Below, in pieces: positions 29,595 through 54,017 of a DNA stretch of 64,000 nucleotides; the first letter of the stretch is position 1; the number at the start of each line of letters is the position of its first letter. The notes below the pieces were generated by a model. The model saw only the letters and a list, made by a program, of their open reading frames with translations. It was not told where the DNA came from and made no database searches. Both the position numbers and the translations under genes were made by a program. Source of the stretch: Octopus vulgaris (lineage: Eukaryota); assembly GCA_951406725.2 (NCBI GenBank), contig OX597830.1:39122001-39186000 (forward strand), read 5' to 3'.

Positions 29595-29647
<53 letters not shown>

Positions 29648-29686
29648 AAAAAAGGTTTGAAAATGCAATTTAAACGATGTTTATTT

Positions 29687-29727
29687 ACTTAACCGGTTTC
29701 ACTCTTTGGTAAAAGATTGTCAAAAGT
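29687..29727 (-). ncRNA. Hammerhead-like motif with UUGACAA core (left arm)
   Basis: Exact reverse complement of 31919-31959. Confidence 0.55.
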
Positions 29728-30509
29728 TACATTTAAGGAAACATTGAATAATATGGGTTCAAAAAAGCTTTTTACATAATTGTCACATTGAATATTATTC
29801 ATTCAAAAAAGTTTTTTACATAATTGTCACATTGGATATTATGAATTCAAAAATGTTTTTTTATACATAATTGTCACATTACATGTATAAATATAGTGTT
29901 TGGTAACAGAGAAGTTCAATAGTGTGATGAGAATATTTGGGAAAATTTGGCAGAAAAGGATAAAACAAATATATTATTGGGAATTGGTTGCGTTAATTAT
30001 TGGTTGTCGCAAATTGTCACATTACATGTATATATATACAATCTTTGGTATATATATACAGCGTTTTGACAGCAAAAATTAAAATGGATTTTTTGTACAT
30101 CTCAGAATATTTTAAGTATGTTTTTACTGACCTGTCAGTATTAGCAGAAAGGCTGAACTGAGAGAACAGAAGAAGTAGCCAATGTGGTGTATACTTCCCC
30201 TTTATGCATGAATGATTTTGGGGTTATCAGGAGGTTAGTATGCGGGTGTGGATAGATGTGTCCGTGCCTGCTGGTCAGATAGCGTCTGTTTGTCACACAC
30301 ATATATATACACACAAACACACACACACACAACACACACACACACACACATAGTATACAAACACACACCACATACAAACAACACACACACACACAGAACA
30401 CACACACCCACACACAACGCACCCACATATATCACATATACACACAGCACACAAATATAACATGTATCTATATATAACATACACAGATATATAACACACA
30501 TACACATAC

Positions 30510-30543
<34 letters not shown>

Positions 30544-31091
30544 ACACACGCACACATACATACATAATATAAATATCACACAAATACACCTAGCATATAT
30601 ATACACACATACAATACACACATACAGCATGTAAGTAATATACATACACAATATATGCATGCAATATACATACGCAATACATACATATAATATATATATA
30701 TATAGACAATGCATATACATATATACACATATACATATAAATAGTGTTTACATACACATACATAGATGTACCACATATACACACAACACACATACATACA
30801 ATGCATACACATACACGTACGCATACATATAATATATATATACACACACACACATAACATACATACACACACAATGCATACATATATATACACGCAATGC
30901 ATATACATGTATTCATGCATATATAGCACACCTACAATATACATATATACAGTGCACACATACACACAAATATATACACTTAATTGTACACGTACATATA
31001 CAATACACATACATACAATATACATATACACAATGCGCATGCAAATAATGTACATGTTTATACACACATAAACATGCAAATAAATATACAC

Positions 31092-31132
<41 letters not shown>

Positions 31133-31918
31133 GTGTGTGTATGTGTGTTATATATCTGTGTATGTTATATATAGATACATGTTATATTTGTGTGCTGTGT
31201 GTATATGTGATATATGTGGGTGCGTTGTGTGTGGGTGTGTGTGTTCTGTGTGTGTGTGTGTTGTTTGTATGTGGTGTGTTTTTGTATACTATGTGTGTGT
31301 GTGTGTGTGTTGTTGTGTGTGTGTGTGTTTGTGTGTATATATATGTGTGTGACAAACAGACGCTATCTGACCAGCAGGCACGGACACATCTATTCACACC
31401 CGCATACTAACCTCCTGATAACCCCAAAATCATTCATGCATAAAGGGGAAGTATACACCACATTGGCTACTTCTTCTGTTCTCTCAGTTCAGCCTTTCTG
31501 CTAATACTGACAGGTCAGTAAAAACATACTTAAAATATTCTGAGATGTACAAAAAATCCATTTTAATTTTTGCTGTCAAAACGCTGTATATATATACCAA
31601 AGATTGTATATATATACATGTAATGTGACAATTTGCGACAACCAATAATTAACGCAACCAATTCCCAATAATATATTTGTTTTATCCTTTTCTGCCAAAT
31701 TTTCCCAAATATTCTCATCACACTATTGAACTTCTCTGTTACCAAACACTATATTTATACATGTAATGTGACAATTATGTATAAAAAAACATTTTTGAAT
31801 TCATAATATCCAATGTGACAATTATGTAAAAAACTTTTTTGAATGCATAATATTCAATGTGACAATTATGTAAAAAACTTTTTTTGAACCCATATTATTC
31901 AATGTTTCCTTAAATGTA

Positions 31919-31959
31919 ACTTTTGACAATCTTTTACCAAAGAGTGAAACCGGTTAAGT
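31919..31959 (+). ncRNA. Hammerhead-like motif with UUGACAA core (right arm)
   Basis: ACUU-UUGACAA-UCUUU(UACC)AAAGA-GU-GAAAC-CG-GUU|AAGU; palindromic stem III AACCGGUU; TATATA about 42 nt downstream. Confidence 0.55.
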
Positions 31960-32420
31960 AAATAAACATCGTTTAAATTGCATTTTCAAACCTTTTTTCT
32001 TATATAATCCCACTCGTGCGATACCCCACAACTCAACTTTTTTATATATATATATATATATATACAGCCGGGTCGGCCAACTTCCTTTCGTTGGCGGCCT
32101 CCTACAAGTGAACACGCTTTTTTCCTGCGTTCTTGAATTTTTCCTCGTCTAGGCCAAAAAAGGCCCTCATTGTTTGTTTCCTTGTTTATTTTTATTTCTT
32201 GTACTGTATTTTTTTGTAATTGTATTTTTATTTTGTATTTGTTTTTTTTTATTTTGTAAATTTATTTGTATCGTTTTTACGTCCTGTTTTTGTCACATTT
32301 TTTTCTTTCCTTGTTTTTACCCCCCTGCAAAGGAATTTTATTTAATTCTTTCGCATGAAGGGTTAGTTCGACGAGTCGTGTTCTGTCCTTACCTTCGAAA
32401 CACGCATGGAGTTGAATTAG

Positions 32421-34455: not shown

Positions 34456-34815
34456 ATTAACCATCGTAGAACTGATAGCTGCAACTGCAGATCTGGGACA
34501 GACTGCCCGCTGCAAGCCCATTGCAGAAGATTCAACGATGTATACCAATGCACCGTTCACAACATAGTAAATAACTCCGATAGCTACTACATTGGATAAA
34601 CCAAATTTCAAGGAAGATGTTATGCACATTTAAACTCGTTTAGATATAAAGAGAATGGCAATTCCACATCACTAGCCTGCCACGTACATCATGTGATTAA
34701 TGGGAAGATACAATATACACTTTCCTGGGCTATAATAGACTCTGGTATCCCAAATCAGGACCAGCAGTGCTTAATAAATACAACGAAGCCTTCGCAACGT
34801 GAAATTCCTTCATAA
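34453..34815 (+). pseudogene. Degenerate GIY-YIG endonuclease of a Penelope-like retroelement (Naiad-like)
   Basis: Reads SCNCRSGTDCPLQAHCRRFNDVYQCTV..YYIG*TKFQGRCYAHLNSFRYKENGNSTSLACHV..YTLSWAII: CxCx5C linker, VY..YIG, R..H..SF, STSL, W motifs; one in-frame stop. Confidence 0.8.
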
Positions 34816-52248: not shown

Positions 52249-52304
<56 letters not shown>

Positions 52305-52327
52305 GTATGTATTTATATATATATGTA

Positions 52328-52933
52328 TATTAATAAATTTTAGGGTAGCCAAAAAATGTCTAGAAAAATTCTCCGCTACCAGTGGTCTATCGAGAAGGAA
52401 AATAGTCAATCGACTATATAATATATATTTACACACATAAGAGATGGCCATAATAGGACATCTGACTCACTAGAAAGAGCAGTTAAACTCTAAATTTTTC
52501 CCTTCTCGCTAGACCACTGGTAGCGGAGAATTTTTCTAGAATATTTTTGCTACCCTAAAATTTATTAATTAATGATAAGATTTTTGGGCTAATTGTGAAA
52601 TTAAATCGGCAGTTATATTTACTGCTGAAAAACTGCGCGAGAGTGGTGGATTTTGAAAATTTATAGCATATAGACTCGAGGCATGGCCCTTATCGCCTCG
52701 TGCCTATGTGCTAGCCTTGGCTTCCTGCTGAAGATGGCAACGCCAATTGTAAATTAAAATAATTTCATTTCATTTACAAAAAGTTGCCGAAACTATGCAT
52801 AGTCCAGGAAAGATAGGGTAAACGTTTTTATTTCTCTTTCCATTTCAGAATTACAACTATTAGTGGTTTGGAGTTTAACTACTCTTTCTAGTGAGTGAGA
52901 TGTCCTATTATGACCATCTCTTATGTGTTTAAA

Positions 52934-52938
<5 letters not shown>
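52328..52938 (+). mobile_element. PLE-type pseudo-LTR (about 52495-52938) preceded by two inverted fragments of itself
   Basis: 52328-52402 is the reverse complement of 52495-52569, and 52430-52494 is the reverse complement of 52867-52930. Contains an HHR; flanked by (TA)n on both sides. Confidence 0.75.
52722..52810 (+). ncRNA. Type-I hammerhead ribozyme with canonical core and extended stem II
   Basis: UUCCUG-CUGAAGA-U-GGCAAC..UUGUAAAU..AUUUACAA..GUUGCC-GAA-ACUAU(GC)AUAGU-C|CAGGAA: 6-bp stem I, 6+8-bp stem II, palindromic stem III ACUAUGCAUAGU, GUC site (cut after 52804). Confidence 0.9.
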
Positions 52939-52989
<51 letters not shown>

Positions 52990-53028
52990 TAAAAAATAGA
53001 GTTAACGCAGGTTTAAACAAGTATTTTT

Positions 53029-53114
53029 ACTTTCGACACATGTTTCGAAAATTTCACTGATACTATTCAAAAGAATAAATGGTATAAACAATGCAATCTT
53101 CTCTTCGGGAAAGT
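53029..53114 (-). ncRNA. Type-I hammerhead ribozyme with CCGAAGA core and extended stem II
   Basis: ACUUUC-CCGAAGA-GAAGAUUGCAUUG..CAGUGAAAUUUUC-GAA-ACA(UG)UGU-C|GAAAGU: 6-bp stem I, about 12-bp stem II with G-U pairs, GUC site. Confidence 0.8.
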
Positions 53115-53314
53115 GAAAGAAACGAAACTCGTCAATACGACATTTTAGCAAAAAATGATGGATTTGTATAGCGACAGACAGAACGCTATTAATATTGTTT
53201 AAAAAACGTTATATGATATAACGTCATAAGTAGCTAACAGAAAGAGTAGGGATATTAATAGTGAATGTTAAATATAAAGGAAATTAAAGTTTAAATTATA
53301 TATAATGATAGAGA

Positions 53315-53854
53315 CTACTTATATGCACTAAATGTATGTTTCTGCCAATGCTTACATATGTATGCTCGTTCTATAACCGTGTTTACTAGAGTATTTTTAG
53401 AAAAAATACTGAAAAATAGTTCAGAATTGCAGAGAAGACAGAATTTCTTGCCTTTGTCATATGGTATCGAAATTGAGAGGATCAACCATTCTAAATGAAA
53501 TTGTTCATTGTGGTCTTTTAAATCCCAAATCAGTTTGCTGAGACCGGAACTATTCCGTTTATTTCTATCCCTAAATATTGAGTAATGGATAGAAATTCTT
53601 TTAGATAACTCTAACGATGTGCTTCCAATGTAAAATCGTACTTTATTACGAGTACTGATTATACACTGGTATATAGAATTTTTAATCTTAGAGTTACTTG
53701 ACATAAATTTAATTCTATTGGAATTGACTTCAGATACAATAACCTTGTTATTAATATTTCTAGAGGGTTGGATGGTATTAGCTAAATTAATGTTAGTATT
53801 AGTAAATGTATTAATATTTAACAGTTTGTTATTATGAGAAGATATAATTTGCAA
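53315..53854 (-). pseudogene. C-terminal GIY-YIG endonuclease domain of a PLE ORF (Naiad-like); frame open, RT portion missing
   Basis: (SNTKNLL)QIISSHNNK..NSIYQC..FYIGST..KRISIH..F..LSKLIWDLK..EWLI..PYDKGKKFCLLCNSE..LVN..E..CKH: GIY-YIG motifs plus the CxxC/N/E/CxH tail. No ATG start (TTG in the track). Confidence 0.88.
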
Positions 53855-53951
53855 GAGATTTTTTGTGTTTGAAATTTGTGAGATTTTTGCTTCCCTGGTA
53901 ACTATTTATTTATTTTTCCGTGTTAATTGTTAACAAGGTAAAAATACACTC

Positions 53952-54017
<66 letters not shown>

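Follow-up and report, generated by a model that had tools for sequence, protein, structure and literature searches.

We read the motif described here, with a probability of about 0.78, as the single type I hammerhead ribozyme of a ~470-nt non-LTR retrozyme, on the + strand of a 64,000-nt stretch of octopus DNA (the window). In this reading the element is likely copied by a Penelope-like element (PLE) and inserts into (TA)n, and its ribozyme has a predicted cleavage site after C52804, a palindromic stem III and a long stem II that would present the sequence GCCA for a clasp.

The hammerhead at C52804

The type I hammerhead consensus is complete in the window copy: C3 U4 G5 A6 N7 G8 A9, G12 A13 A14, the A15.1-U16.1 pair and H17, position 17 being C in 120/121 family copies. 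Sequence inspection located all core elements on the + strand. The 5′ strand of stem I, UUCCUG (52722-52727), pairs with CAGGAA (52805-52810), with double changes at 5/6 pairs. It is followed, by motif match, by the catalytic core CUGAAGA (52728-52734) with one extra U (52735) and, beyond the stem II arm (52736-52788), by GAAA (52789-52792), the palindromic stem III ACUAUGCAUAGU (52792-52803, also identified by its conservation) and C17 (52804). The stem II arm is 53 nt long, or 54 counting the extra U, and ranges from 45 to 74 nt in 121 copies. It comprises a proximal helix GGCAAC/GUUGCC (52736-52741/52783-52788), assigned from the fold and by anchored counting, and a distal AU-rich helix UUGUAAAU/AUUUACAA (52747-52754/52772-52779), assigned from the fold and from covariation. 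The loop 2 strand GCCA (52742-52745) and the loop 1 strand UGGC (52718-52721) are predicted pseudoknot partners, on the grounds of covariation and a tree. Downstream of C17, positions 52805-52818 hold the 3′ strand of stem I, the 3′ side of loop 1 and the 3′ strand of a stem I extension; 52805 is the predicted 5′ end of the cleaved monomer. The extension, CCUU/AGGG (52715-52718/52815-52818), gives loop 1 the form of an internal loop; its pairs 52715-52717/52816-52818 are formed in 94% of cells, with only one-sided changes. The original prediction named neither this extension nor the dispersed repeat that holds the motif. The upstream hairpin (52664-52713), an arm of the branched monomer fold, has 18 pairs, of which 8 show double changes, and 84% of its cells are paired. 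The ribozyme itself consists of three helices with an open stem I, an arrangement backed by covariation.

The minimum free energy (MFE) fold of 52650-52830 is the hammerhead plus the upstream hairpin, at -50.5 kcal/mol (z -3.38), and none of 200 shuffles was equally stable. A strict hammerhead descriptor matched the window twice, at the 52804 motif and on the - strand at 53108, and found no match in 60 simulated windows. The original prediction had called this a textbook hammerhead from its CUGAAGA/GAAA/GUC core and stems I-III, all of which are indeed there as a full-consensus type I ribozyme; the 53-nt stem II arm and the upstream hairpin that it described both form in the MFE fold. Rfam gave no hammerhead at the gathering score in the whole window, and at E<=10 over 52300-53300 its matches were hairpins that hit the inverted repeat by chance, with no hammerhead family among them. 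Rfam misses these motifs, and descriptors with a short loop 2 would miss them too, so that current counts of animal hammerheads and retrozymes are likely too low.

The conservation of these parts might reflect past selection on source elements, the window copy being a dead relic with a non-working ribozyme. The copy does differ by 6-8% from its nearest scored relatives, holds a single hammerhead and carries private changes, one of which, a G-G, breaks a long-range helix of the monomer. However, the core is intact, as are stems I-III and the two strands of the clasp; the MFE fold is that of a hammerhead, and the argument concerns mobility, whose loss is in fact likely, rather than the identity of the motif. 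We consider a non-working ribozyme very improbable. With its one hammerhead this aged copy could cut a read-through transcript, but it could not release a unit-length monomer alone; this and the private changes indicate that it is probably immobile, although possibly still cleaving. As far as the window goes, it may indeed be the likeliest active ribozyme, as the original prediction had it, but against this stand the divergence of this copy and the near-identical units of the young subfamilies. Taken by its sequence, the 52804 motif is a real, full-consensus type I hammerhead with predicted cleavage.

The retrozyme family and the adjoining Penelope-like element

The genome searched comprises 2.8 Gb in 227 contigs. 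A DNA search with the window unit gave 2487 candidates, the best of the 40 scored being 92-94% identical. A 16-mer spanning the core and stem III of the window copy has 744 exact matches genome-wide (reversed control, 1) and a variant 16-mer has 246 (control, 0), together about a thousand, a number that counts ribozyme-bearing units and not insertions. Natural monomers measured from cut to cut at 5 loci are 457-486 nt long, with one hammerhead per unit. In the young subfamilies the units are 474 nt and stand at ~474-nt spacing in arrays, the longest with about five of them. No coding frame was found in the retrozyme unit, which thus lacks the RT and GIY-YIG ORF of an autonomous PLE. There are many dispersed copies, and no LTR pair with an internal region was found. 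Non-coding units that each carry a single type I hammerhead are what PMC7229834 and 10.64898/2026.07.22.740005 describe as non-LTR retrozymes. The hammerhead is accordingly classed, from sequence, as the single ribozyme of a ~470-nt non-coding retrozyme monomer, a known class of element.

The insertion in the window begins after a (TA)n/(TATG)n microsatellite (52255-52328), recognized as its left flank by sequence and by a family-wide bias. Repeat alignment places next to it, on the - strand, an inverted 5′-truncated piece with the monomer 3′ end, a linker and a ~75-nt tail (52329-52494), and then, on the + strand, a direct, near-full, non-coding monomer (52494-52935) of the 457-486-nt family unit. 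The right flank is a (TA)n microsatellite (52940-52985) common to this insertion and to an adjoining PLE fragment. We compared this anatomy with that of 81 loci chosen by similarity or by stem III pattern, so that the following proportions are not genome-wide estimates: (TA)n lies at one end or both in 76/81 loci and at both ends in 50/81 (control windows, 189/1620), an inverted piece occurs in 29/81 and a same-strand tandem piece in 44/81. Outer 3′ ends fall at two fixed places, 60 of 110 at the unit end and 43 at the tail end, with 7 elsewhere. Target-site duplications are unreadable at the family loci, masked by the (TA)n context. PLE insertions are described as having partial tandems, inverted 5′-truncated copies, a tail and a microsatellite target (PMC8557442), and the anatomy of the family matches both this description and the adjoining autonomous element, the family tail being ~100 nt long versus 30-40 nt for the PLEs of that paper.

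Two younger subfamilies, F and G, are ~70% identical to the window copy and hold near-identical dimers and multimers (subfamily G arrays at loci L213-L218 and L224-L227, subfamily F at L183 and L202). Units of the same insertion, counting both arms, often show 0-2 differences in 280 nt, and several arrays stand at least 16 differences from their closest counterpart in the 16 other arrays sampled; some arrays hold units 6-19 differences apart. As judged from these counts, within-array homogeneity fits one template per insertion and is no proof of a circle. Identical 280-nt stretches occur at different loci in subfamily G, and we therefore infer recent activity of this subfamily. Positions 10.1-11.1 at the base of stem II are A-A in 13/13 copies of subfamily E and 36/37 of subfamily G, which may lower the activity of both. 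Family-like contigs (>=80%) occur in 4/4 contig sets whose RNA origin is a guess (17, 50, 43 and 36 contigs), and one contig junction steps back 480 nt, which is as compatible with a tandem as with a circle. At two further loci (L061, L062) a truncated retrozyme copy is enclosed, together with an AT-rich minisatellite, in a tandem unit of ~1.5 kb, a case of passive amplification.

The adjoining element (52986-53960, - strand) is a 5′-truncated copy of a young autonomous Hydra-type PLE with a C-terminal GIY-YIG frame (53315-53905). Its Pfam GIY-YIG match has an E of 0.0083 and lies below the cut-off. The search for this element gave 16,659 candidates, the 150 scored having 92-97% protein identity; intact 778-aa frames with RT and C-terminal GIY-YIG occur elsewhere, in full copies (L126-L129). 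Read against PMC8557442, the 778-aa frame carries Hydra-clade marks (a C-terminal GIY-YIG, DKT, and CxxC and CxH around E and N), and the element is <3 kb with a (TA)n target. The CxCX5C linker motif was not found in this frame, which has RW followed by L instead of RWK. A second Hydra-type remnant in the window is a decayed GIY-YIG fragment with a CxCX5C-like linker (34534-34752, + strand). Elsewhere in the window a large inverted repeat (29640-32006), 99% perfect, surrounds a simple-repeat spacer, with arms at 29761-30334 and 31311-31884 plus flanking segments. The adjoining Hydra-type element ends in TA in the same two ways as the retrozyme and carries its own long-arm hammerhead on the - strand (core 53108-53102, C17 at 53035). 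In this hammerhead position 4 is C, the stem II arm is 55 nt long and stem III is nearly palindromic. The element represents a candidate helper lineage.

Similarity between the retrozyme and this element is local. A whole-monomer alignment against the 3′ region of the neighbour did not rise above shuffles; the two share 69% identity over 65 nt (E 0.019), and a 16-nt match in the tail motif was significant in 1/4 comparisons (0/500 shuffles). An ORF-bearing PLE with the terminal repeat of the retrozyme was not found among Hydra-type relatives, 30 GIY-YIG loci and flanking ORFs, at the top-scoring loci. The 30 GIY-YIG loci examined are Neptune-like, and Neptune-like elements likewise end in (TA)n. 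In most 3′ regions of these Neptune-like families (L134-L163, 781-aa frames) the descriptor gave no standard hammerhead. A helper is inferred because of the target and the anatomy, and the Hydra-type element is the most likely candidate.

The same anatomy, being equal to that of the autonomous neighbour, could also mean that an undiscovered autonomous PLE has left these units as its solo terminal repeats or 3′ ends, amplified from linear multimeric transcripts with no circular stage. An origin of retrozymes from pLTRs has been reported (10.64898/2026.07.22.740005), and homogeneous arrays would also fit a homogeneous source multimer. We find this improbable, given that 457-486-nt units stand head to tail without an intervening ORF, that no family copy is joined to a PLE frame among the fetched loci, and that covariation spans the whole monomer, with long-range helices that suit a closed fold. 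The preferred reading remains that of a non-coding retrozyme copied by a separate helper.

The original prediction had also suggested that the long stem II may be part of an undescribed module. This was not supported: long arms occur here in several sequence-distinct families, including the autonomous neighbour. In the fetched flanks, other such families carry long-arm hammerheads (53-60 nt) beside short-arm ones. One is a (TA)n-inserted repeat with a 582-nt unit, a 60-nt stem II arm and a ACGUACGU stem III (L095, 522 and 1104, - strand), which has a short downstream motif in common with the retrozyme family. Another, with 1637 candidates, has a 45-55-nt stem II arm and an ACGCGU stem III, with inverted pieces and a tail in (TA)n (L002, 1231, + strand; L164-L178). 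Further long-arm hammerheads, with arms of 53-59 nt (L142, 455 (+)/208 (-); L007, 2149 (+); L025, 2525 (-)), include one head-to-head pair; another belongs to a related Hydra-type element and lies in its 3′ region. A more canonical retrozyme is represented by a 480-nt trimer with one short-stem-II hammerhead per unit (L043, 118, 598 and 1078, + strand).

Covariation and a proposed clasp between loops 1 and 2

Covariation was measured in an alignment of 40 copies of subfamilies A-E. Pairing is kept in 89.4% of cells, with double changes at 18/41 pairs, and the covariation score is 0.236 compared to 0.035-0.091 in slid registers; the 40 copies being related, these figures count cells and not events. 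Distal stem II shows double changes at 4/6 pairs. Proximal stem II was misaligned by MAFFT and was hence counted by anchoring, which revealed the versions GGCAA/UUGCC, GACA/UGUC, GACG/CGUC, GCAG/CUGC and GGUGU/ACACC. Over the seven subfamilies, covariation is seen in stems I, II and III, in distal stem II and in the upstream hairpin. Three versions of stem III occur, each perfectly palindromic, and a U-G intermediate besides; the apparent invariance of this stem is inflated by the selection of copies by similarity or stem III pattern. The outer helix of the upstream hairpin is rewritten in subfamily G with its pairing kept.

The alignment that had been proposed as a check of the motif bore it out, stem II and the upstream hairpin both being conserved among copies with compensatory changes. 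Some details turned out to be particular to the window copy. The extra U after A9 is present in it, but an unpaired U heads the arm in just 16/121 copies; likewise the six-pair GGCAAC/GUUGCC helix exists in the window copy, but its sixth pair was found in 1/72 copies, the window's own.

The structure extends beyond the ribozyme. The consensus of 12 whole units has 80 pairs in several arms, 19 of them with double changes, and circular folds of natural monomers gave z values of -3.0 to -5.4 in 5/5 cases (25 shuffles each). The retrozyme monomer is thus predicted by modelling to fold as a compact, self-paired circle. Covariation over the whole monomer indicates that the upstream hairpin is real, yet one arm of a structured monomer, and not the separate undescribed module that had been suggested. 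Its U-G wobble, formerly offered as evidence for the strand, makes a weak argument: over the whole hairpin G-U and A-C are balanced at 50 each, and the U-G at 52669/52708 occurs in 8/40 aligned copies, namely the window copy and 7 of a distant subfamily. Two roles considered for the downstream pyrimidine tract were rejected. For a co-evolving anti-stem-I switch, cognate pairs should be preferred, and across five subfamilies they are not; for a 3′ splice acceptor conserved as a trait of the family, its AG is changed to UG in subfamilies D, F and G.

The UGGC just 5′ of stem I and the internal-loop GCCA of stem II hardly vary in subfamilies A-E, and their pairing was proposed before subfamilies F and G were sampled. 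We counted it in 121 copies, one per insertion. NGGN and NCCN are in place in 108 copies and the motifs are absent in 13. Within the 108, the core-proximal pair is formed in 100 (C-G 50, U-A 42, U-G 8), the remainder comprising 6 with C-A, of which subfamily E accounts for four, and 2 with other combinations. The outer pair is formed in 85 (U-A 48, A-U 35, U-G 2); mismatches there are U-U in 14, which represent subfamily F, and others in 9, and subfamily C shows outer-pair mismatches as well. On a tree of 97 distinct sequences, built with the eight clasp positions masked, UGGC:GCCA prevails in subfamilies A-E, subfamily F is mixed (UGGC:GCCU, UGGU:GCCU and UGGU:ACCU) and subfamily G has AGGU:ACCU. 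Therefore both variable pairs have been compensated around an unchanged GG:CC, the compensations amounting to two events in one lineage. The internal loop of stem II places GCCA 4-5 bp from the core. From these sequence patterns, the UGGC:GCCA helix is likely a 4-bp clasp between helices I and II.

The same four pairs might instead form, in the same element, an off-switch hairpin that sequesters the 5′ part of the core and stops re-cleavage of the monomer or circle. In pseudoknot-free MFE folds of natural circular monomers this very helix does form around the 5′ core in several copies, and the 3′-nucleotide spacing between the motifs is constant at 12-13 nt outside the core, with each side variable. 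An off-switch nevertheless appears unlikely to us. All four pairs are compatible with formed stems I and II, the AGGU of subfamily G is without a partner in stem I, and the distances to the core, 6-7 and 5-7 nt, suit contacts between helices I and II. Moreover, in ribozymes that are active, the same pairing of GCCR with YGGC has been interpreted as a pseudoknot (PMC7936874). We retain the clasp as the likely function of the pairing. A long arm need not imply a clasp, because the other long-arm hammerheads found here, that of the Hydra-type neighbour included, appear by eye to be without GG/CC complementarity of this kind.

We hold it somewhat more probable than the contrary that these features make up a distinct type I architecture, in which two internal loops are clasped by a 4-bp pseudoknot that mirrors the GCCR/YGGC of HDV-like hammerheads. 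It would have been rewired stepwise, from UGGC:GCCA via U-U and U-G to AGGU:ACCU, together with the loss of the G10.1-C11.1 pair, subfamilies that are still active would preserve the record of these steps, and the long-arm type would be common in the Penelope elements and retrozymes of this genome. Literature searches, which took in few subscription journals, returned no cephalopod retrozyme and no long-stem-II type I hammerhead with such a clasp; the supplements of PMC7229834 and 10.64898/2026.07.22.740005 may bear on this. The covarying internal-loop clasp would be the new point, the retrozyme class itself being already known.

Proposed mechanism and relation to known systems

Transcripts of tandem copies would be cleaved once per unit, giving ~470-nt monomers, which are probably ligated into compact, branched circles by analogy with the retrozymes of coral, mussel and axolotl. 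In the ribozyme, the long stem II would expose GCCA in its internal loop, within 4-5 bp of the core, for pairing with the internal loop of stem I, and the resulting pseudoknot would keep helices I and II parallel. This clasp may take the place of the non-Watson-Crick contact that usually joins the loops, and the distal helix, variable and AU-rich, would then be no more than a cap. Stem III, with 4 bp and a UGCA loop, would permit cleavage of the monomer, while its palindrome would also allow a dimeric form. A (TA)n-targeting Penelope-like RT/endonuclease, most likely Hydra-type, would then copy the RNA past unit length, with copying started by endonuclease priming in (TA)n.

The clasp would explain the purpose of the long stem II. 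Seven subfamilies, with mismatched intermediates and a compensated end point, would constitute a natural mutational series for the rebuilding of a tertiary contact. The young subfamily G, alongside a young and intact Penelope-like ORF, makes the dependence of the retrozyme on the PLE testable.

Like the metazoan non-LTR retrozymes of PMC7229834 and 10.64898/2026.07.22.740005, the octopus family is built of non-coding units, low in GC and a few hundred nt long, that each hold a single type I hammerhead, found as dispersed monomers and short tandems with a compact predicted circular fold and co-existing PLEs. The circles tested in metazoan retrozymes are 170-400 nt, compared to an octopus unit of 457-486 nt whose circles are predicted. 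Metazoan retrozymes, as described there, have a short stem II hairpin, whereas the octopus family has a 45-74-nt arm with an internal loop; the family also differs in its predicted Watson-Crick clasp, in its use of (TA)n as target and in having inverted 5′ pieces and 3′ ends at two fixed places.

With the hammerheads of PLE pLTRs (PMC4209133, PMC8557442) the family shares the type I fold, a frequent extra nucleotide following A9 and a helix III that is palindromic, the last two being usual in PLE hammerheads (PMC4209133), and its insertions share (TA)n targets and tandem or inverted copies with a tail (PMC8557442). Unlike those PLE hammerheads, the octopus ribozyme belongs to a retrozyme without an ORF and has a stable 4-bp stem III. 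File S2 of PMC8557442 gives animal Hydra-clade hammerheads, an octopus entry included, a loop 2 of 3-10 nt; in the portion of that source consulted, the sole long arms are those of two spike-moss PLE-X1 elements.

Pseudoknots that replace the non-canonical contact of stem I with stem II were predicted in ~40% of representatives and confirmed with compensatory mutants, and their disruption strongly lowers cleavage in the hammerheads tested (PMC3088659). The octopus clasp resembles these in that a Watson-Crick stem I-II pairing would replace the non-canonical loop contact. The examples in the available text of that paper are mostly microbial or of type II/III, and none there joins two internal loops in an animal retrozyme.

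The closest parallel is provided by HDV-like hammerheads of type III from toad, termite and dipterans (PMC7936874), which are active, cleave at 0.05 and 0.96 per min and carry a GCCR/YGGC pseudoknot. In these ribozymes an internal loop and a capping hairpin lengthen helix I, and GCCR lies in the loop. The octopus hammerhead is alike in having one helix lengthened by an internal loop and a cap, and GCCR/YGGC pairing predicted between helices. However, it is of type I, with GCCR in helix II and YGGC in helix I, the reverse of the HDV-like arrangement. Its two loops are both internal, one of its lineages has AGGU:ACCU, and its host is a genomic retrozyme.
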